DNA of 64,000 bases from Candidatus Melainabacteria bacterium 17Bon1m (GCA_032128875.1 JAVLKG010000015.1:1-64000), one strand, 5' to 3'. Counted from the first letter of the stretch, positions 10,232 through 64,000 are shown. Program-made: numbers and translations. The notes: generated by a model from the sequence alone, not told the origin.

Positions 10232-10302
10232 CCGAAGTATTCTGCGCAAAGCACCCGGTGGCCAGCGCCTAAGGATTCTTAGCTCAGAGAACATTGCCAA
10301 AG

Positions 10303-10923: not shown

Positions 10924-11496
10924 ATGAAGAGAAAACTTTTGATTGCCGTCGTCACTCTTGCGATGGTCTTTCCCGCTCTCGCCATTACAGGCAACGCATC
11001 AGCTCAAAGCGGCGACTATCCCCAACCGCACGTGGACACAATGTCGACTGGCGAGCGTGCAGAAAGACTGGCCGCGGCCCAAGCAAGAGCGCTGGAAATT
11101 GCTGTTCAGATTGCTGAAAAAGATGCCCCGTTCGACGAAGAGTACGCGGCTTACCGGGCAGAGCTGGCAGTGGCTTACGAACCATTCAAGCGGCGCCTTG
11201 AGGCTGTCGAGTCTAAAAAGTTTCAGGCAATGCGCCTTTTGAATGATCAGCGCCTTGCGCTGAGGGAAAGGCACCTGGAAGAAGCGCTTTTGGAAAAGCG
11301 TCGCCAGCTCATTCAGTCATTCGCGGACGAAAGCCAAGCAATCAGGGATGAGTTTGATGTTGCTTTCTCGTATCTGACAAAGAAGAAAGAGGACATCGCA
11401 GCACGTAGGCAAGCCGCAATTGGGGCGCTGTTGGATGAGTTGATTGAAGTCGACTTCGAGATCTTCTCATTGACTCCGCCAGCGGGCTCCAAATAA
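10924..11496 (+). CDS. Secreted coiled-coil hypothetical protein
   Basis: AAGGA RBS; MKRK plus hydrophobic core plus ASA signal peptide; charged helical body. Confidence 0.75.
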   Translation: MKRKLLIAVVTLAMVFPALAITGNASAQSGDYPQPHVDTMSTGERAERLAAAQARALEIAVQIAEKDAPFDEEYAAYRAELAVAYEPFKRRLEAVESKKFQAMRLLNDQRLALRERHLEEALLEKRRQLIQSFADESQAIRDEFDVAFSYLTKKKEDIAARRQAAIGALLDELIEVDFEIFSLTPPAGSK

Positions 11497-11565
11497 GAAA
11501 TCTGGCCAAATCCCCTGCGCTTGAGTAATCGTCAATAAGTCCTCGGACTGCCAATCACAACAAAG

Positions 11566-11595
11566 TGGTGAGACTACGGCCTCACCATTTTTTTT
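11566..11595 (+). terminator. Rho-independent terminator
   Basis: TGGTGAG-8nt-CTCACCA followed by T8. Confidence 0.7.
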
Positions 11596-11816
11596 CGGGG
11601 CTTGTCTGCTAGGATGAGTAGTAGGTGCTGGTGTTTCTGAAATTGGTCGCCGTCTTGCCCCAAAAGTGGACTGAAAATTCTCCTGAAAACCCTGATTATC
11701 ACAGTTAATAACTAAAAGAAATCATGAGCGTATCATTACTAGGTTCTAGCACTAGCTTCTAACTCTAAAACCTCCAAAGCGACGCTCAACCCTCTGGCGA
11801 GACCTGTTTTCTTCCC

Positions 11817-17388: not shown

Positions 17389-19214
17389 TGCGCCTTAAGG
17401 TCAATGTGTTTTCTCGTGGATTGATTCTTGTGTCGTTGCCGATTCTCGGGCAGCTGATTTTCATCGTTGTGATTTCTTCAATGATGCAGCAGGCACAAGC
17501 CAATCTTGAGAAACAGTGGAGGGCGGAAAACCTGTTGAGGTCTGCTTTCTCGCTCTGTCGCGAGTTTACGAATACATTCCTGTATGTTCAATTGCCACCC
17601 TTCTTTCGCAACAAAATCGGGCTGGACGTGAGCACTTCGTCTGTTCTTCGCGCGCGCAAAGATGCCGAGCGTATGCGCGCTCTTGCTTCTGATGACCCGG
17701 AGAAGCAGGACTACGTCAATCGCCTTGTTGAATCCACAACCTACATGTTGGATGTGCTGGAAAAGATGGTTGCCACCGCACAAACAATGCCGATGAGCCC
17801 CTGGGGTTACGGCGCTGCTCCGCAAATTGGACCAGGTATGCGAAGTTATGGAACGGTCTTTTTCAATTCCCTTGAAGGTATCGTCAACATCGAGAAGAGC
17901 AAAGAAGGCGCCAAAAGCGACGAAGGCGCTTATGCCAATGCTCGGGCTGGTTTACTTATATTGTCGGGAGTGAGTATCGCACTTGCCGTTTTTGCAGGTT
18001 TTGTTTTTGCTGTTTCGATCAGGCGACCGCTCAAACATGTCAGTGAAAATGGTCGGCTATTAGCGCAACAGAGCAAGCTTTTGCCGCAGCTAGAGAATGC
18101 CGATCAGTTCTCCAAAATAGACGAATTACTCCATGCTGCGGCGCGCGAAATTGAGACCCTTCGCCTGAAAGAGAAGGAAGTAATTGAGAACGCGCAGGAC
18201 TTAATCTGTACTATCGATTGGGAAGGTACATTCCTATCCGCAAACCCATTTGTTGTGCGGATGCTTGGATATGAACCGGAGTTTGTGATTGGTACTAAGG
18301 TGGAGCGCTACGCCGCTGACGAGCAAAAAATCAGCGCCGCCCAGAACATTCATTCTGCTGTCTCTTCTTTGAGCGTGCAAAACTTCGAATTGCAGCTTTG
18401 TCGGTTTGATGGGGCTGTTGTAGATACGCGCTGGTCTTGTTTATGGTCAAACGCTGAGCGAAAGCTCTTTTGCGTCGTCCGTGACATTACTGAAGAGAAG
18501 CGAGTCGAGCGCTTGAAGCAAGACTTTGCTGACATGATAAGTCACGACCTGCGCAGCCCTCTAATGGCGATGGGGAATGCACTGACGCTTATTACAACCG
18601 GTGTCAAAGGTAGTGTACCGTCCGCTGCCAGACCGCGTATTGAAACATCTGCGAGAAATGTTGAGAAGCTCATTGTTTTGGTCAACGATCTTTTGGATTT
18701 TCAAAAACTCAAGGCAGGTAAAATGGAGCTTGTTTTGGAACCTGTAGTCCTGGAAGCGATTATTAGAGATGCCGCTGAACTGGTCTCTGAATCAGCGACC
18801 GGCAAGAATGTACAACTTGATTTGCCGACCGGTGAAACTGTTATCGAGTGTGATCGAAACAAACTCATGCAGACAGCGGTGAACCTAATTTCCAACGCGA
18901 TTAAATTCAGCGGTGAAGCTGGGATGGTTCGGGTCGTCATCCAGAAGAAGCAGAATACAGTTGAGTTCTCGGTCTGTGATACTGGGCCTGGAATTCAATC
19001 GGAGTTTTTGGAAAAGATTTTTGAACCTTTTGAGCAAGCTCCTTCCGAGAAAAAGAAGGAGGGAACCGGTTTGGGCCTGGCGATTTGCAAGCTCGTGGTT
19101 GAAGCGCATGGTGGAAGTATTTCAGCAAGAAACCGTCAAGAAGAGCCAACTATCGACAATCCGCAATGGAAGACAGGTGCTATTTTCACCGTTGTTTTGC
19201 CATTGGAGCGTTAG
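17388..19214 (+). CDS. Sensor histidine kinase, type B' (paralog of 13652-15571)
   Basis: SHDLRSPLMAMGN and EGTGLGLAICKLVVEAHGG; TAGTG overlap with a GTG start. Confidence 0.95.
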   Translation: MRLKVNVFSRGLILVSLPILGQLIFIVVISSMMQQAQANLEKQWRAENLLRSAFSLCREFTNTFLYVQLPPFFRNKIGLDVSTSSVLRARKDAERMRALASDDPEKQDYVNRLVESTTYMLDVLEKMVATAQTMPMSPWGYGAAPQIGPGMRSYGTVFFNSLEGIVNIEKSKEGAKSDEGAYANARAGLLILSGVSIALAVFAGFVFAVSIRRPLKHVSENGRLLAQQSKLLPQLENADQFSKIDELLHAAAREIETLRLKEKEVIENAQDLICTIDWEGTFLSANPFVVRMLGYEPEFVIGTKVERYAADEQKISAAQNIHSAVSSLSVQNFELQLCRFDGAVVDTRWSCLWSNAERKLFCVVRDITEEKRVERLKQDFADMISHDLRSPLMAMGNALTLITTGVKGSVPSAARPRIETSARNVEKLIVLVNDLLDFQKLKAGKMELVLEPVVLEAIIRDAAELVSESATGKNVQLDLPTGETVIECDRNKLMQTAVNLISNAIKFSGEAGMVRVVIQKKQNTVEFSVCDTGPGIQSEFLEKIFEPFEQAPSEKKKEGTGLGLAICKLVVEAHGGSISARNRQEEPTIDNPQWKTGAIFTVVLPLER

Positions 19215-25461: not shown

Positions 25462-26187
25462 TTATTTTGCGAGCAGTCCTTTCGCCTTCTTGACTGAAAG
25501 GAGTGTCTCGACTTCTTGATCGCCGAAGTGTTTCTCGTAACCCGCACCGGGGCATTCGAGCGCCCACTGGTAGAAAGATGCCATGCGAGCGGGATCGCTC
25601 ACAAGCGGTTTTTCCTGGCGCACGGCGTCGAGGTTTTCGACAATTTCCGCCGCCATTTTCTTGTACAGCTTTTCGATGGTCTTGCCGAGCGCGCCGGGAG
25701 TTTTCGCTCCCTGGTACTCAGCCATACCATGAAGTTTCACCACCTTCGTGCGCGGCCAATGAGTGGCCATCAGGTTCCAGGGATCCTGTTCCTGATTGCC
25801 TTCACCAGCAGCGCGGAAGTCGGTGCGAAGAATGACGCTCGGGATGTCGATCATCTTCGCATAAATGAATTCGACCACCGTGCCGGCGTCGAGATTCGAT
25901 CCATCGAAGTTGAAGATCGCCAGATCACACGTCATCACATGCTTCAGGTCGACGTTGCGAATGTCGACCGTGCGGTGCACGGGCTCTTCGAGATCCTGCG
26001 GGAGGACGCACACATAGCGCCCGCGAGAGACCGATTTGATGTACTTGGCCAGAAGGGCGTTTCCGATCAGGTCTTTGTGCGTCCAGAGGTCGCCAGCGAG
26101 ATAAATCGTGTAGGGACGATTACCACGCGTGCGGTTCTTGTGGGCGGCATTGGTCGAGGTCACGGTCGTGTTGTTGAGCTTGGTCAT
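25462..26187 (-). CDS. Nucleoside 2-deoxyribosyltransferase family protein
   Basis: Motifs IYLAG, LPQD, DLAIFNFDG, DAGTVVE, LRTDFR and WNLM. Confidence 0.85.
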   Translation of the reverse strand: MTKLNNTTVTSTNAAHKNRTRGNRPYTIYLAGDLWTHKDLIGNALLAKYIKSVSRGRYVCVLPQDLEEPVHRTVDIRNVDLKHVMTCDLAIFNFDGSNLDAGTVVEFIYAKMIDIPSVILRTDFRAAGEGNQEQDPWNLMATHWPRTKVVKLHGMAEYQGAKTPGALGKTIEKLYKKMAAEIVENLDAVRQEKPLVSDPARMASFYQWALECPGAGYEKHFGDQEVETLLSVKKAKGLLAK

Positions 26188-26947
26188 TAGGACACCTTTT
26201 GCTGTTTGCGCAGGGTTCCCAGATGGCCAAACAAGACCGGACAATGCCGACGGCTCTGTGAAGAACAACAGAGTTTTCATCGCAAATAGCCTTGTTTTGG
26301 CAGCAGGATCATCCCTGTGCCGTCACGCTATTTGCGCCAGGTATCCGTCATCGAGCGAGAGGTCTCGGTCGTGCAGCCCTGACTCAATCAAACGTTTGCC
26401 GCGCCTGCTTCCATACCGGCCGTCGAAGCCTTCCACCACCGGTGGTAAGGGGAATGCTTCGAGAGTGGAAGTCGGATTGGAAGTCGAGGATTGTTTGTGT
26501 GAAACTACATGGCGAACGGTTGATGCCATAAACTACAGTTTTGTTGATGGTAAATCCATCAAAACGTGCTCCTTTAGATAAATTCCTTAGATGTTGCCTG
26601 GCGCAGCTTGCGCCACCGTATATGGTGGCGCAACGCAAGACGCCCGATACGAAGTGTATCGAGCAGCAAGAAATTTTTGAGGTCGGAAAGGAATTAGATG
26701 CAAGGGACAATAATCGGGTGGGCGTAAACTTAGCGTGAACGCAGCAAGCGCGTTAGGAGTATTGAAACGGCTTGTTAACACTAGCGCTCATTACTGAATA
26801 CCATATGAGGTAATAGAAGCGATTTTGAAAGAGAAACGCGAGCATGCCCCAAACGTCGTTGAAATATTTAGATGACCTCCCTGTTCCGAGTCTCACAACC
26901 CGGGCAGTTTGTAGTTACCAAGCCGCAAACCCCACAAGGAGGTCATC

Positions 26948-28192
26948 ATGACGAAATCATATCTCGATACGAGCAAGAAGGAAGCACTACTAGAAGCCCT
27001 GAATCCAGACCTGAAGTTGGTCATAGCCGAAGGCATTAGTGAATATCTCGGTAGAGGTGCACAATTACTTTTGGAATTGCTGATGCAAGCTGAAGTTCAA
27101 ACGCTCTGTGGTAAGAACCATGAGCGCTTTGATGGAAGGGCCTGCGTGCGCTGGGGCGAAGAGGTTGGAACAGCGATCATTGATGGCGCCAAGCGCAGAG
27201 TGAAGCGTCCCAGAGTAAGAGCTCTTCGCACCTTAAATGGTGAGGTTCAGCTCGAAACATACAAGGCCATGAACAGCCAAGAACTGGTGGACGGACCGCT
27301 CACTGCAGCGATTCTTGCTGGAGTATCAAGCAGGAACTACGAAAACATTGTTGCTCGTGGCTTGGAGGCAAAGGGAATCAGCAGTAGCACAGTGAGCCGA
27401 AAGGCAATCGCCGTAACCAAACCAACAGTTGATGAATTCAGAACTCGCAAAATCGATCACCTCGACCTTGTAGTCCTGTTTTTAGATGGTGTAAACGTAG
27501 CAACACGTCAAGTCATCGTCTGCGTTGGCGTTGATAGCGGGGGAAAGAAACATGTTCTCGGGCTGAAGAACGGGGCCACTGAGAACGAATTTGTGTGCCA
27601 AGACTTAATTGACGACTTGAAAGAAAAAGGCTTAAACACAGAGAAAAAATACTTGTTTGTCATTGATGGCTCAAAAGCCTTAGCCAAAACAATTCGAGCT
27701 TCCTTTGGGCCGAATGCGGCAATCCAGCGCTGCCAGGAACACAAGATTCGTAATGTGCAGGCATATCTCCCTCGGAAATACTGGGACGATGTGCGAAAAA
27801 AAATGACAGCGGCGTACAATGAGAAAACTGAAAAGGCAGCATGCGCCCGACTCATGAGCTTGAGAAGCGAACTCATTCCGATTAGCGAAGGTGCTGTAAA
27901 CACACTGACTGAAGGTCTAATTGAAACCCTAACTATCCATCGCCTCAACGTTGTTGGCTCGCTAAAAAAGGCTCTCAGAACGACAAATGCGATCGAATCT
28001 ACCTTCGCATCCGTACGCCGCTACATGCGCAACGTAAGCAGGTTCAGGAGCGAATCTAGCATCGACTTGTGGTTAACGCGGAGTTTGCTAGAAACAGAAA
28101 GACATTTTCGAATCATGCCTGGGCATCGCCAGTTGAATACTCTGAAAAAACGGCTAACAACATACAAAGTCAAAAAACATTCAGATAGCTAG
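26948..28192 (+). CDS. IS256/Mutator-family DDE transposase
   Basis: Motifs LFLDGV, FVIDGSKAL, QRCQEHK and TTNAIES; AAGGAGG RBS. Confidence 0.92.
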   Translation: MTKSYLDTSKKEALLEALNPDLKLVIAEGISEYLGRGAQLLLELLMQAEVQTLCGKNHERFDGRACVRWGEEVGTAIIDGAKRRVKRPRVRALRTLNGEVQLETYKAMNSQELVDGPLTAAILAGVSSRNYENIVARGLEAKGISSSTVSRKAIAVTKPTVDEFRTRKIDHLDLVVLFLDGVNVATRQVIVCVGVDSGGKKHVLGLKNGATENEFVCQDLIDDLKEKGLNTEKKYLFVIDGSKALAKTIRASFGPNAAIQRCQEHKIRNVQAYLPRKYWDDVRKKMTAAYNEKTEKAACARLMSLRSELIPISEGAVNTLTEGLIETLTIHRLNVVGSLKKALRTTNAIESTFASVRRYMRNVSRFRSESSIDLWLTRSLLETERHFRIMPGHRQLNTLKKRLTTYKVKKHSDS

Positions 28193-42042: not shown

Positions 42043-43515
42043 TTGAATTTCTTACTCAATCTCGAATATCTTCCGCGCCTACCACTGAATAAGCGCTTAT
42101 CGAAGGCATTGCGCAAAGCAATCGAAGAAGGCAGATTGAGGCCAGGCGACGCCCTTCCATCAACCAGAGACCTGGCGACCAATCTCAAGATATCTCGCTC
42201 CACAATTCTGTCTGCAATGGAAGAATTAGTCGAAGAAGGCTTGATCATTGCATTGCCTGGTTCTGGCTACTACGTGAAAGAAACGGATATCGTAGAAGAT
42301 TTCCAGCCGAGTCTAAATTCTGAATTTACCAAACCGCTCAGGTTGAGCGAGTTTGCTAAACGAGTCCGCGATGTACACGCTGAGATGCAAACGCGCTGGT
42401 TGGAAAAGTTGCCTGATATTAATTATGGAACCATACCTAGCACCCTGACACCGCATAAAGAATGGGAAAGAATGATGCGGCGCTATTGCCGGGCGACTGA
42501 CATCGACACCCTCACGCCAACCATTCAACCGTTCGGTTATCCGCCCTTACGAGAAGCAGTTGCAGCGTATCTCCATCGAGCCCGCGCCGTAAAATGCGAC
42601 AACAGGCAGGTCGCTATTTTTTCTTCCAAACAATTACGCTTGGAATTGATCACGAGAATTTTGATAAATCCAGGAGACTATGTGGCTTTTGAAGAGCCGG
42701 CTTACGCAGAAGCGAAGTATCTTCTCAAAGCGCATGGCGCAATAATTCGCCCAGTGGCTACGGACGAGCAGGGTCTTGTAGTGGACGAACTTTTCAAAGA
42801 TGCTACGCCCGTCAAAATGATTTATGTAACTCCATCTCACCAGGATCCAACCGGTTCTGTAATGTCTCTGGAAAGGCGCAAGAAACTGCTCCATTGGGCT
42901 TACAAAACCGGCACGATAATCATTGAAGACGATTATGACTGCGAGTACAGGTACGGCAAAAAAAGTCTTCCCTCCCTTCAAGCCCTGGACGAATTCGATA
43001 ACGTCATCTATTTGGCCTCGATTTGGAAGTCTCTTTCATTAGTCGGTTTTGGTTTTACAGTCTTTCCACGACGCCTGGCAGACGTGGCACAAATGGCAAA
43101 AATGGAAATGGAAAAATACTTGCCGGTCGCCGAGCAAGTTGCGCTTACAGACTTGATTAATGAGGGTCATCTGGAAAAATATTTGCGCAAATCACAAGCA
43201 AAACTGGCATTGCGAAGACAGGAGATGATTTTGGCTCTGGCCAAATATTTCAAGAATCGACTCAGTCTTTTTTCGGAAGGAGCCGGAACGCACCTGGTAG
43301 TGCGGTTTATCAGCACCAGCGAAAACCTAGTGGTAGAAACGGCAAAAGTCGCAGGAATCAGCATCATGAGTACTGCATCCTATTACGAAGAGTCGCCTCG
43401 GCAAGGGGAATTCATGCTTCCCTTCGCCTGCTATCAGAACGCAGAAGTGGACACACGTGTCAAGAAATGGGCTGATGAATTGAAAAAACGGTTAGCAAAA
43501 CATGCCACTAACTAA
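42043..43515 (+). CDS. MocR/GabR-family regulator (GntR wHTH plus PLP domain)
   Basis: Motifs LPSTRDLA, GSGYYV, YVTPSHQDPTG, EDDYD and SIWK. Confidence 0.92.
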   Translation: MNFLLNLEYLPRLPLNKRLSKALRKAIEEGRLRPGDALPSTRDLATNLKISRSTILSAMEELVEEGLIIALPGSGYYVKETDIVEDFQPSLNSEFTKPLRLSEFAKRVRDVHAEMQTRWLEKLPDINYGTIPSTLTPHKEWERMMRRYCRATDIDTLTPTIQPFGYPPLREAVAAYLHRARAVKCDNRQVAIFSSKQLRLELITRILINPGDYVAFEEPAYAEAKYLLKAHGAIIRPVATDEQGLVVDELFKDATPVKMIYVTPSHQDPTGSVMSLERRKKLLHWAYKTGTIIIEDDYDCEYRYGKKSLPSLQALDEFDNVIYLASIWKSLSLVGFGFTVFPRRLADVAQMAKMEMEKYLPVAEQVALTDLINEGHLEKYLRKSQAKLALRRQEMILALAKYFKNRLSLFSEGAGTHLVVRFISTSENLVVETAKVAGISIMSTASYYEESPRQGEFMLPFACYQNAEVDTRVKKWADELKKRLAKHATN

Positions 43516-44959
43516 CTTAGACTTGCAACTAGATCCGTTTTCAAAGATTCCTCTCGGTCGCCAACTGACCGACAAACTGCGTCGAGCTATCATCGAAGAG
43601 CAAATTGCCTCAGGCAGCGTGCTGCCGTCAATCAGAACGCTTGCAACCAAGCTAAATGTTTCGCGCTCTACAGTAATGAGATGCTACGAGGAGTTAGCGG
43701 GTCAGGGATATATCTCAATCACCCCAGGCTCAAACACTTCGGTCTGCAAACGCATGCCTGGCGAGTTAGAGAAAAAGCATTCGCCGCTCGAACTCGAACC
43801 GAATGAGAATTTCACACCTCCTGCACTTTCGCACTACGCCGAAAAACTTCTCTTTGCGGCGCGCGAAGCCCCCGCGCAATCAAAATTCTTTCTCAACTAC
43901 GGAGGACCGCCTTTAGATACGGCTCCCGTAGATCGATGGCGTGAGCTTATAGGCATTCACATAAAGAAGAAGCAAAGCCCACACTGCTCATCCGCTGGAT
44001 ATTTACCGCTGCGAAAAGTCTACAGCGATTATCTTTCGCGCACACGCGCAATAAGATGCGACATATCGCAAGTTTTTGTTTTTACGGCCCGAGAACTGCG
44101 CCTGGATTTGCTGTGCCGCTTGCTGTTGGAGCCCGGTGATGCTGTGGCCGTTGAAAATCCTGGATACCCTGGCGCGAGGCAACGTTTTGCCGTGCATGGA
44201 GCAAAAATTGTGCCTATTCCGGTGGACTACCAGGGACTGGATACAGATTATCTAGCTAATTTGAAAGAAGACATCAAGATGGTTTATTTGACGCCATCTC
44301 ACCACGAGCCTACCGGTGTAGTCATGCCGGCAAGTAGAAGAAAAAAACTGCTCAGTTGGGCGGAATCGAGGGGCGCAATCATTGTTGAGGATGACTACGA
44401 CTCAGAATTTCGCTACGACTCGAGACCAATTGCATCTCTGATGAGTATGGATGAATCGGACTCCGTGGTCCATATTTCATGCCTCTGGAAAACACTATCT
44501 CCCGTTTCGAAATTGGGATTCATGATAGTGCCAAAACGCTTGTCACACATCCTAGCTTGTGCGAAAGCTCTTGTAGAGCGCGAAACACCACCACTTGAAA
44601 CTTTGGTGCTTACTGACTTTATCAAGACCGGCAATCTGGAGAGGATCATCAGCAAAAATCGCAAAATCTACGAATCGCGAAGAAGCTCTCTAGTCAACGC
44701 ACTGAAGACCGCCTTTGCCGAAAAAATTACCATGTCATCCGAAAGTGCAGGCATGGACCTTTTCGTCCGGCTCGATTGCCCCCTTCTTGAAATTGAAATT
44801 CTAAAAATGGCGCAGAAGGCAGAATTACCGATAGTGAGCGCTGCACCTTATTACGTCGACACGCCACCCGGCAAGGAATTTATCATTCCTTTCTCTGAAA
44901 TTCCGGAGCAGGTAGTGGAAGAAAAAGTCAAAAATTGGGTCAAGCTCTTACAAATGTAA
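43502..44959 (+). CDS. MocR/GabR-family regulator (second copy)
   Basis: Motifs LPSIRTLA, YLTPSHHEPTG, EDDYDSEF and CLWK; overlaps the first copy by 14 nt. Confidence 0.92.
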   Translation: MPLTNLDLQLDPFSKIPLGRQLTDKLRRAIIEEQIASGSVLPSIRTLATKLNVSRSTVMRCYEELAGQGYISITPGSNTSVCKRMPGELEKKHSPLELEPNENFTPPALSHYAEKLLFAAREAPAQSKFFLNYGGPPLDTAPVDRWRELIGIHIKKKQSPHCSSAGYLPLRKVYSDYLSRTRAIRCDISQVFVFTARELRLDLLCRLLLEPGDAVAVENPGYPGARQRFAVHGAKIVPIPVDYQGLDTDYLANLKEDIKMVYLTPSHHEPTGVVMPASRRKKLLSWAESRGAIIVEDDYDSEFRYDSRPIASLMSMDESDSVVHISCLWKTLSPVSKLGFMIVPKRLSHILACAKALVERETPPLETLVLTDFIKTGNLERIISKNRKIYESRRSSLVNALKTAFAEKITMSSESAGMDLFVRLDCPLLEIEILKMAQKAELPIVSAAPYYVDTPPGKEFIIPFSEIPEQVVEEKVKNWVKLLQM

Positions 44960-51914: not shown

Positions 51915-52412
51915 TCAACCAAAGGTCGAAGCATACGCCTCGTCAATCAGCTCGTGCATCATTGCCAAACGCAGCGAACGATGCTCAGCTTTGAACTCGT
52001 CCACCGTCATGATGTGACGAGTTCCTTCCAGCGGCTCGGCGACGATGGCGTCCACGATTGCGGTCATGATGACCATGTACGTGAGTTCGCCGGGTTCGGT
52101 ACCGTAGAGGTCGGACTCGATGGCGCGCAGGAATCGAAGATTGCGCAGCGTGATGCCGGCTTCCTCCAGGGACTCGCGCCCAGCGGTTTCCTCCAAAGAA
52201 CTTTCGCCCTCGGCGACGTGACCGCCAGGAAGGTCCTTGCCCCGTTTGTCGTCGGTGGCGACCATGGCACCATCCGCGGTGAAGGGAATCACCGAGACAC
52301 TGGTCACCTGGTCGAACGGCGGCACGAACCCAGGCTCGCAGAGCCGGAAGTTGGCTTTACGTCCGCCCTTCGGCGTCCGCTTCTTGTCGGGTCTTGGCAG
52401 ATTTTCAGACAT
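51915..52412 (-). CDS. NUDIX hydrolase
   Basis: LPGGHVAEGESSLEETAGRESLEEAG, a Nudix box with a one-residue insertion. Confidence 0.88.
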   Translation of the reverse strand: MSENLPRPDKKRTPKGGRKANFRLCEPGFVPPFDQVTSVSVIPFTADGAMVATDDKRGKDLPGGHVAEGESSLEETAGRESLEEAGITLRNLRFLRAIESDLYGTEPGELTYMVIMTAIVDAIVAEPLEGTRHIMTVDEFKAEHRSLRLAMMHELIDEAYASTFG

Positions 52413-53179
52413 CAGGAATTACCTCCCGAATTTTCGTCCCGCCCGTAGCTGACTTTCAGAGCGAAGATGACCATCGCCAGAGACAGAAGTCCCCAGACAA
52501 TGCTCCACACAGCAGCAGGAATGCCCGTATAACTCGCCATGTTGGTTGCGTCGGTGAAGGAGCCGTGCGCAGAAAAACCGACCGAAATCTGGATCAGATA
52601 CCAAACGTCGCTCATTGCGCTGAGAGCCGTTTGTCCAGCCAGAATCAGCAAGGTGATGTGCGCGATTGCGGGTGAGAATTTCAGTCCTGCGAAGAACAGA
52701 CCGGCAGAGATTGCCAGCCCGATGCCCAGACTCATGAAGGCTTCACTTCCGTGCCGTGCATCGAACAGCCCGGGGATGATAAAACCGACACAGCAGAGGG
52801 CGAAGAGAACACCCAGGATGTTTAGAACCAGCTTGGCGTTTTCTTCCTTACGACCGAACCAGATAAGCAGCGAGCCGAAGAACGCTGTGCCCATGTAACC
52901 GGCAGACGAGACGAGCGGTCCGATGCCTCCCAGGTGGAAGGTCAGTCCGCCTGCGCCTTCGCCATCCGGAACCATGGTCAGACCAGTGACAGTGCCACCC
53001 GTGAAAAGCGTCATGAGTGCATGTCCGAACTCATGCAAACCAGTCGTGAACGTGCGCAGCGGCATCAGCACCAGATTGATACCCGGATACTGCGTGATGA
53101 AGAAGAACAGGACATTGAGCCCGAGCATGAGCCAGAGCGAGGCTCGTTTGGACGGGGCTGACGAGATCATGCGATTCAT
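52412..53179 (-). CDS. M50 (M50B-like) membrane metallopeptidase
   Basis: Motifs HEFGHAL, GGLT, SAGY and TDA; multiple TM segments. Confidence 0.88.
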   Translation of the reverse strand: MNRMISSAPSKRASLWLMLGLNVLFFFITQYPGINLVLMPLRTFTTGLHEFGHALMTLFTGGTVTGLTMVPDGEGAGGLTFHLGGIGPLVSSAGYMGTAFFGSLLIWFGRKEENAKLVLNILGVLFALCCVGFIIPGLFDARHGSEAFMSLGIGLAISAGLFFAGLKFSPAIAHITLLILAGQTALSAMSDVWYLIQISVGFSAHGSFTDATNMASYTGIPAAVWSIVWGLLSLAMVIFALKVSYGRDENSGGNS

Positions 53180-53330
53180 AGCTAGCCCTTTTCTCAGTTA
53201 GAGAGCGACCTGGCGCCCTCATTAGTTGCGCCGCCAGGGCGCGAAACCACACGCAGGGGCGCTGCATGCGAGCCTTGAGAGGCAGGCGCATGTGCAACCC
53301 CTACGTGCTTTCTTGGATTTCCGCAGGCGC

Positions 53331-54182
53331 CTAGGACGCGGGCTGCGGAGCAGTTTCACCCGGGCGAGCTTGCTGCTCACCCTGATGGTCTTCGTGCGCT
53401 TCGCCGGACGCAGCGCTTTTGACGCGTTGCGTTTGCGGCTTTGACGCGGCCACCTTTGGTTGCTTCAGGAAGACTGTTTCCATCAGCCCCCTGGCGCCGT
53501 TGCAGACCAGCATGCCGTGCGCATCCGTCTGGCTGCCGACATAGTCGAGAGCCATGCGGAAAAACGCGACCGGCTTGCCTTCCTGAACAACATAGGTCGG
53601 CTGCACGCCCCAGACACTCTCCAGGCTATGGAGAATATGACGGCGAGTGCGGACCTTAACGGCGATAGTCGGTTCGTTACTGGCGTTTTCCGCTTCATAA
53701 GGGCTCTTTCCAGTCTTGATGAGCTGGAGGTAAAGCCCCTCTTTCGAGCGAATCACCAGCGGCTTGGGATTGTCGCTCCAGTAAAACTCCTGAAGGACTG
53801 AAGCCGACACCTTGTGTGAGAAAACTTCCAGGCGAGACAGTTGCCCGAGCTCGTCCTGGCCGTTTACGTACACTTTCACCGCAATCGGCTGTTCGCCGAC
53901 GGACTCGGTGTAAGGCGATACGACTCCAGGAATTCCGAATTTCCCGAAGTACTTCCTGCCCAGACGAAAGCCGATTACCCCGAAATAGAGAGCGATAGCG
54001 CCCTCCAGAATGAGGAAAATCGGATTACCGTCAAAGCCGCGATAGATCTCCTGGAAGATGGCGGGGTCGCCAGCCAACCATTGGAGAAACACCACCAGCA
54101 GAGCACCGGCGAGGTAGTACGCCAGAACTGCAGCTGTGATACCGGCCATGGTGGCCAGTAATGTTCGAATGGATTTTGACAT
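53331..54182 (-). CDS. Two-TM hypothetical protein with soluble C-terminal domain
   Basis: AGGAG RBS before ATG 54182. Confidence 0.75.
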   Translation of the reverse strand: MSKSIRTLLATMAGITAAVLAYYLAGALLVVFLQWLAGDPAIFQEIYRGFDGNPIFLILEGAIALYFGVIGFRLGRKYFGKFGIPGVVSPYTESVGEQPIAVKVYVNGQDELGQLSRLEVFSHKVSASVLQEFYWSDNPKPLVIRSKEGLYLQLIKTGKSPYEAENASNEPTIAVKVRTRRHILHSLESVWGVQPTYVVQEGKPVAFFRMALDYVGSQTDAHGMLVCNGARGLMETVFLKQPKVAASKPQTQRVKSAASGEAHEDHQGEQQARPGETAPQPAS

Positions 54183-57967: not shown

Positions 57968-59410
57968 ATGTCATCTAGCAAAACATCTGGAAAAGGTGGA
58001 AAGCGACGCTTTCGCACCGAGACTGATTCGATGGGTCAAGTGATGGTGCCTGTCGACGCCCTTTACGGCGCGACGACACAACGTGCCATCATCAACTTCC
58101 CCATCAGCGGGCATCCGATGCCCCCTTCGTACATTCACGCCATCGCCGCAATCAAGGCATCAGCCGCCGAAGCCAACGCTCAGCTCGAGCTTCTGGACCG
58201 GCGCACAGCTTTCACGATTGTACAGGCGGCCGAAGAAATCATCGCTGGAAAACACGCGGGCGAATTCCCCATCGACGCGTATCAGACGGGCTCCGGCACT
58301 TCGACGAACATGAACGTCAATGAAGTAATTGCCGCGCGGGCTCGCCAGATTCTCGGCGCGGATCTCGCCGACCGTCACACGGTGCACCCCAACGACCACG
58401 TCAATCGCGGTCAGTCGTCAAACGACGTCATCCCGACTGCGACGCACGTGGCTGCTTCTCTGCTCATCTGCCAGAAGCTCCTGCCCGCTCTCACAAATCT
58501 CGAAAAGGCGCTGAAATCCAAGTCGAAAGAATTTGCCAAGGTCGTGAAGACAGGGCGAACCCATTTGCAGGATGCCACCCCCATCACGCTCGGTCAGGAA
58601 TTCTCGGGATACGCCGCTCAGGTGGCCAACAGCATCCAGCACGTGAAGTACGCCAAATCGCGGCTCAGCTATGTTGCGCTCGGCGGGACGGCTGTCGGCA
58701 CGGGTATCAACGCCCATCCGCAGTTCGCTCGTCTGGCTCTGGCGCGGCTGTCTGAGCGGCTTGGCATTCGCTTCCGCGAAGCCACCAACCACTTCCAGGC
58801 GCAGAGCACGCTCGATGAAGTGGTTGTCGCATCAGGCGCGCTGAAGACCGCGGCGGTCACACTGATGAAAATTGCCAACGACATTCGGCATCTCGGCAGC
58901 GGTCCGCGAGCCGGTCTCGGCGAGTTGAACGTGCCCGAGGTTCAGCCCGGCAGCTCGATTATGCCCGGCAAGGTCAACCCTGTCATCGCAGAATCGCTCT
59001 GCATGGTGTGTGCGAAGGTAATCGGCAATGACGCGACAATCACCGTCGCTGGTCAGTCGGGTCTCTTCGAACTCAACGTCATGCAACCCGTGGCTGCGAT
59101 TTGCTTGATCGAATCGATCGAACTGCTCGCCAATTCTGCCGACAACTTCCGCAATCGGCTGGTCGAGGGTCTCACCGCTACCGACCGCGGACCGCGTCTT
59201 GTCGAAGAGGGTTTGATGCTGGCGACGGCATTGGCTCCCGTTCTCGGTTACGACAAAGCCGCTGCAATCGCACACGAGGCTGCCACCACGGGTGAAACCA
59301 TCCGCCAGGTAGCTCTGCGAGTTTCTGGATTGCCGGAAGATGAGCTCAACAGGCTGCTCGACCCGCTCTCCATGGTGACCAATAAGCCTCAGCGCGGGCG
59401 CCGAAAGTAA
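57968..59410 (+). CDS. fumC: Class II fumarate hydratase
   Basis: Motifs RTETDSMG, QTGSGTSTNMN, HPNDHVN, GRTHLQDA and GSSIMPGKVNP. Confidence 0.93.
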   Translation: MSSSKTSGKGGKRRFRTETDSMGQVMVPVDALYGATTQRAIINFPISGHPMPPSYIHAIAAIKASAAEANAQLELLDRRTAFTIVQAAEEIIAGKHAGEFPIDAYQTGSGTSTNMNVNEVIAARARQILGADLADRHTVHPNDHVNRGQSSNDVIPTATHVAASLLICQKLLPALTNLEKALKSKSKEFAKVVKTGRTHLQDATPITLGQEFSGYAAQVANSIQHVKYAKSRLSYVALGGTAVGTGINAHPQFARLALARLSERLGIRFREATNHFQAQSTLDEVVVASGALKTAAVTLMKIANDIRHLGSGPRAGLGELNVPEVQPGSSIMPGKVNPVIAESLCMVCAKVIGNDATITVAGQSGLFELNVMQPVAAICLIESIELLANSADNFRNRLVEGLTATDRGPRLVEEGLMLATALAPVLGYDKAAAIAHEAATTGETIRQVALRVSGLPEDELNRLLDPLSMVTNKPQRGRRK

Positions 59411-59476
59411 AGCTTGTGCCGATGCTGGTTTTGGCATCAGCATAACGCAGACCTGAAGGTCGCCACAACAACAGGT

Positions 59477-59516
59477 AATTCGCCGGGACGCGCACGGACG
59501 TGCGTTCCGGCGAATT
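59477..59516 (+). other. Strong intergenic stem-loop
   Basis: AATTCGCCGGGACGCG...CGTGCGTTCCGGCGAATT. Confidence 0.6.
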
Positions 59517-59552
59517 CATATCAACGTCCGATATACATAAGGAGTAGTATAA

Positions 59553-60617
59553 ATGGAGCAATTCCACAAGTACGACCCCGCTCAAATGCTCGGGCCGAGC
59601 CCCCTCGCGAAAGCAAGCGATGAGCTCATCCTGACGCACATGGTTTCTCCCCAAGTGAAAGCCCTTCTGGGTCCTGTAACCGGAGGTCGAGTCGAACTCC
59701 GCGATAGTCAGGCCGGCTTTTTCCCCGGGGACGAAGTGTCGAATATCAACGGCAACATCATCAAGGGGCGCGACGGCGAGGCGCTGGTGCGCTTTCCATA
59801 CGTGTCTAGCCTGTACGAACACAAGAACGGCTGCCTGATCATCAAGCGCGACTTTGCGAAGATCAAGGTCTTTGCGTGGCTCGGCGACTGGAAATCCGGC
59901 AAGGCTGACCTAATCCTCAGCAGCGCTCTTCGTGACCGGCGTTACGACGGCACAAAACTCGCCAACGACTGCTCACTGCTCGACTATCCTTACGACGACC
60001 CTGTGCTGTCGAAGCGAATGACGGTCAACGGCGAAACCGCCGACCTCGTCACCGCCGAGACATCGCTGTATAGCTACTTCCCAGGCTCGACCATCGCCAA
60101 AAGCGGTGGCGGCAAGCAGCTCGACGCGTTTATCGCCAAACCGTTCACGTTCATGGACCGGCCCAAACTCTTCCTGCGTTTGTTCAAACGCGCCTGGAAG
60201 CTGGACCGTTTTCCCGGGCAGAACTCAATTCCCATCCCCGACGTTGGCAAACTCGCTCACGCCGGCTGGGAAGCTGTCGCGCGCGAGTGCGGCTTGGACG
60301 CTCTTGAGACGTGCCCCAGCCATTACCACGTCACTCTGTGGAACATGGCAAAGGGCTACACGTTCTCCTATGCAGAGCAAGAAGCGAACATCAACGCCTT
60401 CAAGGCCGGCATCCAGAAGCTCAAGGACAACGGCGTCAGTCTTACACGAGCGCAGGAGGCGTGGGTTTGTGTGCTGAACAGCCTGGAACCGAAGGAGCTG
60501 ATTCCCGAGCACCTTCGCATGGATACTCCGAAGTGGATTCAGACTTGTCTGGATCAGGAGTCCATCTGGCTCGTGAAGCCGCTTTCGGCGAAAGCTGCTC
60601 AACTGCTCAAGAAGTAA
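59553..60617 (+). CDS. Hypothetical protein, possible divergent GNAT-like C-terminal half
   Basis: TAAGGAG RBS and codon bias; FPGQ...G...ECGLDAL...PSHYHV...GYTF. Confidence 0.75.
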   Translation: MEQFHKYDPAQMLGPSPLAKASDELILTHMVSPQVKALLGPVTGGRVELRDSQAGFFPGDEVSNINGNIIKGRDGEALVRFPYVSSLYEHKNGCLIIKRDFAKIKVFAWLGDWKSGKADLILSSALRDRRYDGTKLANDCSLLDYPYDDPVLSKRMTVNGETADLVTAETSLYSYFPGSTIAKSGGGKQLDAFIAKPFTFMDRPKLFLRLFKRAWKLDRFPGQNSIPIPDVGKLAHAGWEAVARECGLDALETCPSHYHVTLWNMAKGYTFSYAEQEANINAFKAGIQKLKDNGVSLTRAQEAWVCVLNSLEPKELIPEHLRMDTPKWIQTCLDQESIWLVKPLSAKAAQLLKK

Positions 60618-61066: not shown

Positions 61067-63409
61067 ATGTACCAGTTAGAAGGCGACAACCAGCAAGCTC
61101 TCGCCCCAAACGAGGCTAAAGTTGCCGAAGCAAAAGAGAAAGCCGCCCAGGGCATGCTCGCTGAAGTTCAAGGCGGTCGCAAAACGACTGCTGTCGTCGA
61201 TACTGCAGAAAGAGATGCGAATCTGCCTCTTTCCGCAATGATGTATTTCGGCGCCATACCGGGAGCTGACAAACCTCCTGAGCCGGTAAAAATGCCGGAA
61301 GCGCCAAAGGGTTTTGCAAACAATTTAGCCAAGTCTTTCACTTATTCGCTTATACAAGCACCTGTCGATGGTTTAAGTCAGCTCGTCGACAAAAGCTTCG
61401 GCTCATCGTGGCAGAAATCACTGCACTTCATGGACGCTCCGGCGCCAGCGAAATACGGCACATCCGATTGGGCAGCACAGCAAATCGGTGGCGCAGGCGG
61501 CATGATCGCGCCTTACTTGCTTTTGCACACCGGTGTTTCAAAAGTAGTCGGACGCGAAGTTCAAACAGCCAACTCCTTAAGCAGAGCCAATATCGGCAGG
61601 TTCGCAGCGCAAGAGTCAGGCATAGCAGCCGTCTCCGGTACGATTTACGGCGGTGTTTTCACACCGGTAAATTCAGCGTCGCAAGACTTCTGGGGCGACC
61701 GCTTCAGAAATGCGGCAACAAGCGGTTTAACATTCGCCACCCTGACCGGCAGCTCAATCGGCTTGCAAGGCTTGGGACGCTCTATGAGCGCTCAAGGACG
61801 CACAGCCTTCGGCGGCATGCTCCAACACGAAGTCGCTGCCGGCGTCTTATCGGCAGTGCCGGCTGGTATCGTTCATGCGGACGGCGGTTCGCTTTTGGCA
61901 GGCAAGGGCCTGGCAACAGGAAAAGAACGCACAGAAGCAATCACCACATTCGCGATGGTGGGCGGCGTCTTTGGCGGCGGTCATCGCTTATTGAACAATT
62001 ACCGAGCTCGCAATCAAGCGACTGAAACGAACGTTCCTGCAGTTGACGCACCAGTCGGAAGCGTGAGAGCCGCAAACGTTTTCATGCTGGGCGAGCGCAT
62101 CACAAAGCCAAGTGAAGCAGCAAAAATGCCTGAGGTGAAAGGCCTCACGGAACAGCCAGCCACTGGTGAGACGGCCAACACCGGTACAAAAGCCGAAGCC
62201 AATCTTCCGCTTCTCGAAGTCGGCAAGCCAACTACACGCTACCAGGGCGTTGAACCAAACGCTATCGTCGAAAGAGTCATCGATACCAAGGGCGGCGGCA
62301 AAATCGTCATGTTCTCGAATGGCGAAAAGGTCGTCGACATCCCCGGCGAGCCCATTCGTACACAGAAAGCAGGTGGACACGTTGTCGTCGAAGCACGCGA
62401 CGGCAAAGTCTCCGAGACTCGCATCAAGAGCCAGATCCCACTTGAAGAAAAGCCGCTGAACGTAGCCAGCGGCGCATACGAACAAATTGGAAAAGACCTT
62501 TCCAATTTCGCAGACCGCCCATTCACACTCGACGGCAGACAATACGCTTCGGTGGAAGCTTTCTATCAAGGGCTGAAGTGGCCTGATGCTGCAAAACGCG
62601 CAGAAGTAGCAGTACTCACCGGCAAAGAAGCAAAATACTCCGCAAGAGAAGCACCGAAATCACAAACTTTCGAGTACGAAGGGCAAACATACAAGCTCGG
62701 CAGCCCGGAGCATCATCAATTGATGAAGCGCGCTATTCGCGAAAGCTTGGAACAAAATCCGGAAGTGATGAAAGATTTTGTGGAAACTTATCCACGACCG
62801 ATCGAGCACAAGACAGGAAGAAGAGAGAATCCACGCTCTGCATTCCCGGGCTCTGCATTCACTCGCATCCTTTCGGAAATCAGAGCAGAATTGCGTGAGA
62901 AGTACGGCATAACCAACGATGCGCCGGCCCCAATCAAACCTGCAGTCGAGGAAAACATGAGCAAGTCGGTCTCTGAAACTCTTCGCGACGTGGTCAGCTC
63001 AGGCAACGCCCCTGAAAGACAAAATCTCGATGTTTACTCGAAAGCAATGGAAAATTCGCCGCATCGCGTCAAGGAATATGTGACAACAGGCAGTGATTCG
63101 GTTGTGATGAAACTGACCGATGGCAATATGCTCAAACTCACAAAAGAAGGCGAATTGCCCCCGGCAAGATCGTTCGACATGCCCGTTGTAGACAAAGGAA
63201 CAGCACTTGCCGATCAAATTACCGTCAATTGGTTCATTCAACCGGAAGCGAAGTCACCAGTTGCACAAGCTGATTTGATGCCATTCTTGCAGAGAATTAG
63301 ACAAGAAGGCTACAGAATGATTGATCCATCGTTGTCTAATTTAGGCTATTACAACGGCGAAGTAAAACTGCTCGATCCCTGGGCAGTTGTAGAAATTCCG
63401 AAGCAATAA
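61067..63409 (+). CDS. Modular protein: Gly/Ala-rich membrane-like region, NADAR-like domain, kinase-like domain
   Basis: NADAR-like LSNFADRPFTLDGRQYASVEAFYQGLK and LMKRAIRESLEQNPE; kinase-like TGSDSVV..LK and DPSLSNLG..VKLLDP. Start (61067 or TTG 61004) uncertain. Confidence 0.8.
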   Translation: MYQLEGDNQQALAPNEAKVAEAKEKAAQGMLAEVQGGRKTTAVVDTAERDANLPLSAMMYFGAIPGADKPPEPVKMPEAPKGFANNLAKSFTYSLIQAPVDGLSQLVDKSFGSSWQKSLHFMDAPAPAKYGTSDWAAQQIGGAGGMIAPYLLLHTGVSKVVGREVQTANSLSRANIGRFAAQESGIAAVSGTIYGGVFTPVNSASQDFWGDRFRNAATSGLTFATLTGSSIGLQGLGRSMSAQGRTAFGGMLQHEVAAGVLSAVPAGIVHADGGSLLAGKGLATGKERTEAITTFAMVGGVFGGGHRLLNNYRARNQATETNVPAVDAPVGSVRAANVFMLGERITKPSEAAKMPEVKGLTEQPATGETANTGTKAEANLPLLEVGKPTTRYQGVEPNAIVERVIDTKGGGKIVMFSNGEKVVDIPGEPIRTQKAGGHVVVEARDGKVSETRIKSQIPLEEKPLNVASGAYEQIGKDLSNFADRPFTLDGRQYASVEAFYQGLKWPDAAKRAEVAVLTGKEAKYSAREAPKSQTFEYEGQTYKLGSPEHHQLMKRAIRESLEQNPEVMKDFVETYPRPIEHKTGRRENPRSAFPGSAFTRILSEIRAELREKYGITNDAPAPIKPAVEENMSKSVSETLRDVVSSGNAPERQNLDVYSKAMENSPHRVKEYVTTGSDSVVMKLTDGNMLKLTKEGELPPARSFDMPVVDKGTALADQITVNWFIQPEAKSPVAQADLMPFLQRIRQEGYRMIDPSLSNLGYYNGEVKLLDPWAVVEIPKQ

Positions 63410-63411
63410 AT

Positions 63412-64000
63412 TTAGTCACGCGGAACAGGAACAGGACCGGTTCCATCAATAACCGGCGTCCAGTCATGATTGCGGAAGCGACGCGGCAATCCGAGACCTG
63501 TGGGAGACTCGATGAAAGCTTGAATCCAAGGGATATTGTTGTTAGGACCGCCATACGGCAATATAAGCGCGCTGCGCACATCTGAAAAGCGATACATCGA
63601 ATTCGACATCATAGTGGTCAAAACGTCTTGCTCATGAGGCGTCAAACTGTTGTAGAAGCGGTTGTTCGGGTGGTTAAGCGGCAGATAGGTGCTCGGACTG
63701 TCCACCACCTTCACGTTCAGGTGCGGCTTGCCGTCTGCTGGGAAAAGATTTGGATAATCGGCTTGATTTGTCCATGGATTTTTTCCACCAGGAACATCAT
63801 GGCGACCCAAAGTTCCAACCGTGATGTCTTGAATGAGCGGCTTGCCATCCTCCATAAACCGGCTTTGCAAGACACTAAAGACGTTCTTTTGATTTTGATC
63901 AAGCAGTTTTGGTATTTGGTGACCACTCATCGCATAGTCATCGATAAAAACGAGACGCTTAGTTTTCAGAGATTCATAAAGCGGTTTCAAGCTGTCCGGC
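63412..64000 (-). CDS. PRTase-CE-like phosphoribosyltransferase-fold protein (5' truncated by the window)
   Basis: PRPP-loop-like LVFIDDYAMSGHQ and C-terminal LILPYGGPNN; the frame is open to the window edge. Confidence 0.65.
   Translation of the reverse strand, partial: PDSLKPLYESLKTKRLVFIDDYAMSGHQIPKLLDQNQKNVFSVLQSRFMEDGKPLIQDITVGTLGRHDVPGGKNPWTNQADYPNLFPADGKPHLNVKVVDSPSTYLPLNHPNNRFYNSLTPHEQDVLTTMMSNSMYRFSDVRSALILPYGGPNNNIPWIQAFIESPTGLGLPRRFRNHDWTPVIDGTGPVPVPRD

Follow-up and report, generated by a model that had tools for sequence, protein, structure and literature searches.

A NADAR and kinase-like fusion gene of Melainabacteria converges on a giant gene whose end encodes a retron-type phosphoribosyltransferase-like module

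Introduction

What might a bacterial chromosome do with a protein in which a NADAR domain is fused to a kinase-like domain? The question is raised by an open reading frame (ORF), encoding a protein here called P0001, at one end of a 64,000-nucleotide stretch of DNA (the window) from Candidatus Melainabacteria bacterium 17Bon1m (GCA_032128875.1 JAVLKG010000015.1:1-64000). The source is an uncultured non-photosynthetic relative of cyanobacteria. Only one public name was found for P0001, "YbiA (DUF1768 family)", assigned automatically, and an earlier reading of the DNA (the original prediction) proposed a polymorphic-toxin-like scaffold with swappable enzymatic cargo, membrane-inserting or delivered and possibly countering ADP-ribosylation. 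Here we describe a NADAR and kinase-like cassette that exchanges its N-terminal module, and a conserved tail-to-tail partner gene, overlooked by the original prediction, that ends in a phosphoribosyltransferase (PRTase)-like module.

A gp30.3/AdfN-type NADAR domain

NADARs cleave N-ribosyl linkages of riboflavin intermediates and ADP-ribose derivatives, according to the NADAR passages of PMC9503650. In P0001, the Pfam family PF08010 (Phage_30_3) matched residues 476-601 over profile positions 5-132 of 138 (E=1.1e-15, 58.1 bits against a cut-off of 36), and PHROG 652 matched with E=2.6e-20. Matches to other NADAR types were weak, namely the NADAR-DarT1 model (E=0.009), E. coli YbiA (2b3w, E=0.003) and TIGR02464, a model of riboflavin N-glycosidase (E=0.051, 13.8 bits where the cut-off is 73.7). 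A tblastn search found NADAR homologs in 265 phage records, mostly T4-like and some annotated 30.3, with 26-34% identity that for phage gp30.3 covers 80-90% of the domain. T4 gene 30.3 has been renamed adfN, and the sections of PMC11825919 devoted to it describe the product as a NADAR that frees DNA guanine of ADP-ribose and defeats DarTG1, with full activity requiring residues E36 and K43 as well as an unidentified extra factor.

The residues in question are kept in P0001. E497 and H581 do not vary among 12 aligned proteins, in which conservation of K504 is at least 90%. In the alignment with a Krischvirus gp30.3, E497 and K504 correspond to E37 and R44, and they are 7 residues apart, as are E36 and K43 in AdfN. 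H581 aligns with a His of phage gp30.3 at a place where YbiA has E-H, and we assume it to be the His that in the AdfN clade replaces an otherwise conserved Glu. Judged by sequence, the P0001 domain belongs to the gp30.3/AdfN family, whose ADP-ribosyl-guanine activity is established. The motifs from which the original prediction had called a NADAR, namely SNF (S479-N480-F481), SVEAFYQGLK (495-504), LMKRAIRESLEQNP (552-565) and ILSEIR (601-606), all occur where it had read them, and the PF08010 match supports the call. It had also correctly noted that the usual DxxWG is not evident, since the site reads H581-KTGRRENP, and its link to ADP-ribose on guanine becomes sharper with the assignment to the family of T4 gp30.3, that is, AdfN (PMC11825919, same sections).

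A kinase-like domain without a C-lobe

The C-terminal domain of P0001, here termed KIN, was modelled with AlphaFold2 (AF2) from a 10-sequence alignment of residues 625-780, giving a predicted local distance difference test score (pLDDT) of 89.7 and a predicted template modelling score (pTM) of 0.83. Foldseek of this model against PDB gave 24 matches at E<=1e-3, with protein kinases only among the matches listed; the best was YabT (6g4j, E=8e-5), others included STK16, CDK11, PknB and PknG, and template modelling scores (TMq) were 0.41-0.54 overall. Its elements come in the order expected of a kinase, with an N-lobe and then the catalytic loop and DFG region. Because P0001 stops 10 residues past the DFG-like D770, KIN is devoid of a C-lobe, and no C-lobe helices are present in the model. 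Its motifs are G675-x-D677, K690, R701-x-F-D704-x-P, Q725-P726, G748-Y749, D753-x4-N758 and L-L-D770-P, and the positions of K690, D753, N758 and D770 fit the predicted strands as judged from the model. GSDSVV (675-680), LK (689-690), DPSLSN (753-758) and LLD (768-770), on which the original prediction had based its kinase-like assignment, are at the positions it gave, and the assignment is borne out by the predicted fold together with the motifs.

When 1.84 billion cluster representatives were searched with a KIN profile, at least 314 relatives appeared at E<=1e-3, and conservation was counted over 164 domain instances in 151 proteins. K690 is conserved in 139/155 instances, D704 in 145/155 and Q725, at the end of model strand 94-101, in 140/156. 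Position 677, in the beta1-beta2 turn, is Asp in 93 and Glu in 29 of 152; position 753 is Asp or Glu in 142/152 (Glu in 16), position 758 is Gln in 100 and Asn in 41 of 150 (141/150 together), and D770 is retained in 141/143. This conservation has the form of an active-site pattern, and catalytic-type residues are intact in both NADAR and KIN.

Named kinase families did not recognise the domain. A Pfam scan gave no kinase family at E<=1 for KIN of P0001, and none of Pkinase, APH, RIO, Kdo, T7 kinase or Kinase-PolyVal was found in 134 different KIN proteins (77 scanned at E<=1e-4 and 58 at E<=0.5). A PDB profile search with KIN returned no kinase at E<=10, tblastn of KIN against 50,697 phage records gave no match at E<=1, and a word-index search for shorter named KIN homologs found 2. 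In a language-model atlas the nearest named clusters were Kinase-PolyVal and Phage_T7_kinase (0.92), taken as a lead only.

The closest likeness is to kinases that occur in polyvalent proteins of phages and plasmids. In the kinase passages of Iyer et al. 2017 (PMC5512222), this clade is described as having lost the whole C-terminal subdomain while keeping the phosphotransfer residues, with Gln conserved in the final strand of the N-lobe and an acidic residue ahead of strand 2. KIN, like Kinase-PolyVal (PF18762), consists of an N-lobe plus the catalytic and DFG region with the C-terminal subdomain lost, shares the last-strand Gln (Q725) and the acidic residue at 677 (D/E in 122/152), and occurs in stand-alone and multidomain forms and as small genes clustered beside a giant gene. 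However, the Pfam model matches 0/134 KIN proteins, and the conserved His before the catalytic Asp of Kinase-PolyVal is found at none of KIN positions 743-752, where G748-Y749 is conserved instead. KIN also has R-x-F-D-x-P and G-Y motifs of its own; its partners (gp30.3-type NADAR and the N-terminal modules N1 and N2 described below) go unmentioned in those passages of PMC5512222, and its hosts are Melainabacteria and Omnitrophota, as opposed to the Verrucomicrobia-Chlamydia or Bacteroidetes named there. We file KIN as a separate, uncurated family outside Pfam that is probably related to the C-lobe-less kinases of polyvalent proteins. KIN was also seen inside giant Candidatus Omnitrophota proteins, P0129 (3273 amino acids), P0103 (2434) and P0179 (4268), the first of which additionally has a response-regulator receiver and a calcineurin-like phosphoesterase domain.

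Exchange of modules around the NADAR-KIN cassette

Full-length homologs of P0001 are 87, 87, 83, 68, 66 and 53% identical to it; five further homologs, one labelled Candidatus Obscuribacterales, match the C-terminal half only, at 41-51% identity. A scan of species-representative genomes yielded 13 related loci (L001-L013), labelled mostly as metagenome-assembled genomes of Obscuribacterales, Melainabacteria or Cyanobacteriota, with three under the generic name "delta proteobacterium" and one under Chloroflexota.

The N-terminal Gly/Ala-rich helical module of P0001, N1, had been set beforehand as a query for the swappable-cargo idea of the original prediction, and it did retrieve paralogs with differing C-termini. 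Eight of the 18 proteins found carry NADAR and KIN, and the other 10 carry C-termini of four other classes that are mutually unrelated by BLASTP and have no Pfam family. PDB sequence searches with these other heads gave nothing useful; one of them, the C-terminus of P0021, looks papain-like by eye only. The related loci additionally show N1+KIN and N1+NADAR forms.

The cassette is exchanged as well. When the 151 KIN proteins were sorted with our own module profiles, 99 had KIN without any other recognisable module, many of them only ~140-170 amino acids long, and 34 combined KIN with NADAR, in the order NADAR-KIN in 29 and KIN-NADAR in 5. KIN occurred with N1 in 13/151 and with N2, a second N-terminal module, in 19/151, and tandem KIN was present in 10/151. 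The NADAR-KIN pair is found behind N1, behind N2 or with no N-terminal module. Kinship of N1 and N2 was considered and rejected (hhalign probability 0.3%, hmmsearch scores marginal). In a NADAR tree, a quick one without support values, N1 and N2 forms intermix, which points to repeated swapping, and the KIN-NADAR forms make up one clade. Paralogs also stand side by side, as N1-KIN, NADAR and N2-NADAR in L008 and as N1-HP-NADAR, N2-NADAR and N1-KIN in L009 (HP being a short spacer that precedes NADAR), so that NADAR and KIN are still neighbours where they are split. This recurrent fusion in both orders and this proximity where split indicate that NADAR and KIN are functionally tied, and, as the module profiles tell it, the cassette is itself a fixed unit, in front of which N1 or the unrelated N2 can stand as the exchangeable N-terminal module.

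Two further observations concern single loci. In L005 an extra stand-alone NADAR gene (2027-2815, minus strand) lies just upstream of the N2-HP-NADAR-KIN gene and on the opposite strand. Frameshifted copies are present in L006 (HP-NADAR-KIN, 7468-8703) and L012 (HP-NADAR, 7905-8668) and are either decaying genes or assembly errors.

A convergent giant gene with a PRTase-like end

The P0001 gene is met on the opposite strand by a partner ORF that ends 2 nucleotides past it. The partner fragment inside the window contains LVFIDDYAMSGHQ, which resembles a loop binding phosphoribosyl pyrophosphate (PRPP), and PYGGPNNNIP, and shares 43-50% identity with the giant-gene ends of L002-L005. Against Pfam PRTase-CE it scored E=0.0012 and 19.3 bits, below the cut-off of 27 because the window end cuts the gene; the end of the L009 giant scored 30.2 bits, above that cut-off. 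Relatives of the partner match PADLOC PRTase_III-A, the effector of type III-A retrons, with a best E=4.2e-9. In the nine sequences of this module, here PRT, the PRPP-loop-like VYxDDYxxSGxQ and the PYGGPNNN motifs are invariant, and a second conserved region precedes the PRTase-CE part of the giant end. The giants range from 1636 to more than 2629 amino acids, with a constant end of ~450 amino acids and variable fronts. The L008 giant (77-6484, plus strand) has RHS plus annexin repeats in front; the L009 giant (12751-17661, minus strand) has an FHA front and, by eye only, an HExxH and a PI3/4-kinase-like stretch; and the L011 giant (9185-17074, minus strand) has two FHA domains, a transglutaminase/peptidase-like region and ~550 amino acids beyond the PRT module.

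The KIN gene is immediately convergent with the PRT giant in 9/9 loci that hold the PRT module. The gap is 2 nucleotides in the window, 22 in L002, L004 and L007, 37 in L003, 146 in L005, 35 in L008, 18 in L009 and 98 in L011; the nine loci amount to about seven independent lineages, because L002-L004 are close relatives. Each of them also has a NADAR within 5 kb, and wherever KIN and NADAR sit on separate proteins it is the KIN gene that abuts the giant. L001, L010 and L012 have HP-NADAR only, and no match to N1, KIN or NADAR was found inside the giants.

The likeness of the partner to retron effectors has limits. In the portion of PMC12746101 concerned with the Retron-Eco11 PRTase-like effector, its PRPP loop ends in SGNQ, it bears a PNNxP signature and its activation depletes PRPP; the partner end has the corresponding invariant hhhhDDxxxSGxQ and PNN motifs, and its relatives match both the PRTase-CE and PRTase_III-A profiles. 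By contrast, the module here forms the C-terminal end of giants with RHS, annexin, FHA or peptidase-like fronts, and its conserved neighbour is NADAR/KIN, as opposed to a reverse transcriptase or DprA-like antitoxin. For the window, whose end leaves the upstream side of the partner outside, no retron RNA family was found in Rfam at threshold, and no reverse-transcriptase family was listed among Pfam matches of 47 window ORFs, a scan that did not extend to the related loci.

Discussion

PRTases form N-ribosyl bonds from PRPP, and NADARs cleave N-ribosyl bonds; an eraser encoded beside a putative writer would follow, by analogy, the logic of DarT and DarG. Because the order of KIN and giant genes is strict, we tentatively lean towards P0001, a protein of four modules (N1, HP, NADAR and KIN), being an enzymatic counterpart, antidote or regulator, of the neighbouring PRTase giant in a chromosomal conflict locus, a reading that may well prove wrong. 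Domain anatomy, conservation, module exchange and gene order are the observations, from which we infer the functional steps as follows. The PRTase module would consume PRPP and/or make N-(phospho)ribosyl adducts, and NADAR would erase such adducts in the manner of a type IV antitoxin, as in DarG1. KIN would use ATP to phosphorylate either the giant, in the manner of a type VII antitoxin, or the released ribosyl product, and N1, or N2 in relatives, would be a non-catalytic helical module for localisation or docking. PRTase effectors of the retron type and ShosT are toxic by way of PRPP and purine chemistry, as described in parts of PMC12746101, PMC11961720 and PMC12961424, the latter two presenting ShosT as a toxic PRTase, and a kinase that acts as antitoxin by phosphorylating its toxin is exemplified by TakA-TglT in a passage of PMC7205606. 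The FHA domains, readers of phosphothreonine, in the L009 and L011 giants were counted in favour of the counterpart proposal. A three-enzyme ribosyl circuit, in which the PRTase end writes (phospho)ribosyl from PRPP on a nucleobase or another amine, NADAR removes it and KIN silences the PRTase by phosphorylating it or phosphorylates the released product, is a more specific and unlikely version of it; if true, it would be a writer/eraser/kinase toxin-antidote or defence system outside current defence catalogues, built from an uncurated mini-kinase family of at least 314 clusters plus two uncharacterised carrier modules.

Known systems agree with this proposal in part. The P0001 NADAR is above the PF08010 cut-off, is 26-34% identical to phage gp30.3 and keeps the AdfN Glu/Lys sites; AdfN, however, is a stand-alone phage protein of ~150 amino acids, whereas the P0001 domain is part of a 780-residue bacterial protein. 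DarG1 is paired with the ADP-ribosyltransferase DarT1, whereas the conserved neighbour of P0001 has a PRTase-type module, and no ADP-ribosyltransferase family appeared among Pfam matches of the P0001 neighbours or 42 further window ORFs; PADLOC gave no match for P0001. The combination of a product eraser with a toxin-modifying kinase is, as proposed logic, shared with DarG (type IV) and TakA (type VII), as these are treated in excerpts of PMC11825919 and PMC7205606. Unlike those systems, the P0001 pair is convergent, its toxin candidate is a giant and its antidote candidate has an extra module of 320 amino acids.

Several findings weigh against the counterpart proposal. L013 has a NADAR-KIN gene with no PRT gene within 4.6 kb downstream, and the frameshifted NADAR-KIN copy of L006 is likewise without one. 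The adjacency sample is small and comes from one genome scan seeded with the NADAR-KIN half, so that the frequency of PRT giants without KIN cannot be read from it. No fusion of KIN with the PRT module was found among 181 stored proteins, and the KIN and giant genes are convergent, without the co-transcription of classical toxin-antitoxin pairs. The 99 KIN proteins that lack other recognisable modules, some of them giants of another phylum, mean that KIN has uses beyond pairing with PRTase. The four unrelated non-NADAR-KIN C-termini on N1 suggest an effector carrier as a better fit than an antidote, and activity of the PRT module in the giants is presumed from its motifs alone.

The main rival, a sharpened form of the original prediction, we hold to be doubtful: P0001 would be a delivered, polyvalent-type effector, with N1 or N2 as the carrier or translocation module that brings swappable enzymatic heads out of the cell or into a target. 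NADAR would there remove defensive guanine ADP-ribosylation, KIN would phosphorylate target proteins as do T7 kinase and the kinases of polyvalent proteins from phages and conjugative elements, and the giant would be a further multi-effector protein of the same arsenal, its adjacency reflecting co-delivery. In line with this, N1 is joined to at least seven architectures (NADAR-KIN, KIN, NADAR and the four unrelated classes), the mixing of N1 and N2 forms in the NADAR tree (without support values) points to repeated swapping, and the giants bear RHS repeats, annexin repeats, FHA and peptidase-like domains. The relevant passages of PMC5512222 place C-lobe-less kinases in polyvalent proteins and describe small Verrucomicrobium ORFs clustered beside a large primary gene; the nearest characterised NADAR relative is a phage counter-defence enzyme (PMC11825919, in the part on adfN); and the atlas leads, which are leads only, name Kinase-PolyVal and Phage_T7_kinase for KIN and LPD22, LPD14, P22 gp16 and PT-TG for N1. 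P0001 further resembles polymorphic toxins in that a conserved N-terminal module carries exchangeable C-terminal heads, with several paralogs per locus. However, neither a signal peptide nor a known domain for secretion or trafficking nor any gene of a secretion system was seen (Pfam, 47 window ORFs), the window has the look of ordinary chromosome (CCA-adding enzyme, FtsH, fatty-acid oxidation, fumarase), structural searches with N1 gave nothing significant, Kinase-PolyVal and its conserved His are absent from KIN, and tblastn found no KIN homologs in the phage records. Nor would delivery as an effector explain why it is KIN, specifically, that always abuts the PRT end. The polymorphic-toxin label of the original prediction finds no support, since P0001 has no recognised pre-toxin or trafficking domain and no same-strand downstream immunity gene, its head is a putative reversal enzyme, as opposed to a toxin, plus a kinase-like domain, and the NADAR-KIN cassette itself swaps N-terminal modules.

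That KIN is a nucleotide- or toxin-binding module, immunity-like or a sensor, engaging or sensing either the PRT module or some nucleotide signal, which would leave NADAR as the sole catalytic head, we regard as quite unlikely. The 99/151 proteins with no recognisable module but KIN, many of them short, and the tandem KIN of 10 proteins, reminiscent of immunity-protein arrays, would suit it, as would the Gln in 100/150 instances at the Mg-binding Asn and the Glu in 16/152 at the catalytic Asp; yet 90-99% of instances keep the Lys, the Asp/Glu and the DFG-like Asp, an active-site pattern, and kinases of the polyvalent type without a C-lobe are held, in the kinase passages of PMC5512222, to retain phosphotransfer residues. 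Highly improbable, to our mind, is a housekeeping role without any part in conflict, with a YbiA-like N-glycosidase clearing phosphoribosylamino by-products (damage control in riboflavin or purine metabolism) next to a small-molecule kinase. Its weak matches to TIGR02464 (E=0.051) and YbiA and the ordinary chromosomal context are set against a best family of gp30.3/AdfN rather than YbiA, the missing DxxWG, rampant module shuffling with several paralogs per locus and frameshifted copies (L006, L012), the pairing of the gene with a retron-type effector module, and the lack of riboflavin genes nearby in Pfam scans of window ORFs.

Full-text literature searches, whose coverage did not include the founding NADAR paper, returned no description of a NADAR-KIN fusion or its PRTase pairing, and the NADAR and kinase passages of PMC9503650 and PMC5512222 make no mention of either. 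The gp30.3/AdfN NADAR, hitherto characterised as a stand-alone phage counter-defence enzyme, is here placed within multidomain proteins of bacteria, next to a partner domain that is fixed. AdfN of T4 needs an extra factor (PMC11825919, adfN sections), and therefore KIN, repeatedly fused to gp30.3-type NADAR, is a concrete lead, tempered by the absence of a KIN homolog from the phage records searched. A sizeable C-lobe-less kinase-like family outside Pfam coverage is defined, and Melainabacteria are seen to hold effector-like gene families with combinatorial architecture. The conserved gene order connects N-ribosyl hydrolysis by NADAR with PRTase effectors of the retron type, for which little is known of products or natural antidotes; a functional pairing would offer a testable toxin-antidote pair and a handle on the function of the PRTase-CE module.

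Gene structure and surroundings

The features of the gene are collected in Table 1. Its frame is open from a TTG at 61004, the ATG at 61067 matches the predicted starts of homologs P0002-P0004 and P0006, and the stop is at 63407-63409. Domains are conserved and linkers are not in a domain-by-domain comparison of identity.

Table 1. Features of the P0001 gene and its convergent partner, in window coordinates
Feature	Residues	Position	Strand	Basis
Whole ORF (protein P0001)	780 amino acids plus stop	61067..63409	+	Full-length homologs, 53-87% identity
N-terminal tail	1-79	61067..61303	+	Acidic, low-confidence, poorly conserved
N1, Gly/Ala-rich bundle of long helices (predicted)	80-320	61304..62026	+	AF2 model, composition
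P/A/T/E-rich linker	321-397	62027..62257	+	Composition, low conservation
HP, short beta-hairpin-repeat-like spacer	398-460	62258..62446	+	Conserved alongside NADAR in many relatives
NADAR domain, T4 gp30.3/AdfN family	461-615	62447..62911	+	PF08010, PHROG 652, YbiA 2b3w, phage gp30.3 alignment, conservation
Linker	616-632	62912..62962	+	Low conservation
KIN, protein-kinase-like without C-lobe (predicted)	633-780	62963..63406	+	AF2 model, Foldseek, family conservation
Partner gene, 3' end	Last 195 codons, cut by window end	63412..63999	-	Putative C-terminal part of retron-type PRTase-CE module

The tail has pLDDT below 50 at residues 1-13 and 28-79, and between P0007 and P0001 its identity is 16%, that of N1 56%. 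N1 contains 15% Gly and 14% Ala and is predicted to form 6-7 long helices, with pLDDT ~78-89 over most of residues 80-310 and lower values at 161-180. Its Kyte-Doolittle maximum over 19 residues is 1.29, weakly hydrophobic and below the classical transmembrane level, and hydropathy revealed no classical transmembrane segment in P0001 and 11 relatives. Pfam gave no domain in residues 1-460, and in Foldseek searches of PDB and BFVD with N1 none of the best 500 matches reached E<=1e-3; weaker rows naming membrane transporters, GPCRs and phage tape-measure or large virion proteins were discounted. In the language-model atlas N1 lay near LPD22, LPD14, P22 gp16 and PT-TG (0.86-0.90, PT-TG at 0.86). 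At the end of the modelled stretch, residues 320-345 of the linker have pLDDT below 50. The HP profile matches the RHS-repeat region of the L008 giant (E=1.7e-4), a weak resemblance, and one homolog has a weak Tcp10_C match in this region. The weakly hydrophobic Gly/Ala-rich N-terminal region and the P/A/T linker of the original prediction are both recovered by composition and hydropathy. Its beta-hairpin stretch (398-460) finds partial support in the RHS match, and its "membrane-inserting or delivered" finds none in hydropathy or in structural matches of N1.

About 450 nucleotides of non-coding DNA lie 5' of the gene. The ORF directly upstream (59553-60617, plus strand, 354 amino acids) matches no family in Pfam, NCBIfam, PHROG or PADLOC and lacks a counterpart in the related loci, where seven window ORFs between 52415 and 60614 gave no tblastn match. 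The 64-kb window holds no paralog of the P0001 gene, and promoter and terminator scans gave chance level only. Neither an Rfam family at gathering threshold nor a tRNA gene was found across 1-64000. Against plasmids, P0001 had one weak match, confined to NADAR. Elsewhere the window resembles ordinary chromosome; the families matched by its ORFs include a CCA-adding-type enzyme, FtsH, fatty-acid oxidation genes, a class II fumarase/aspartase-family lyase and a Nudix hydrolase.

Other stretches of the window have features of their own. Four head-to-tail histidine-kinase paralogs of 611, 639, 605 and 608 amino acids, with abutting start and stop codons, occupy 11817-19214 (plus strand); they have HisKA and HATPase_c, with a PAS domain in one. 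A nucleoside 2-deoxyribosyltransferase-family protein (25465-26280, minus strand, E=1.6e-10) is near a Mutator-family transposase (26948-28189, plus strand); the nucleoside 2-deoxyribosyltransferase fold doubles as an effector in some defence systems. A tandem pair of GntR plus aminotransferase (MocR-like) regulator genes lies at 42043-44959 (plus strand). Finally, G+C content is 0.55-0.63 at 1-10000, 52001-54000 and 58001-60000, against ~0.46-0.54 in most other blocks, and long ORFs run on both strands within the high-G+C blocks.

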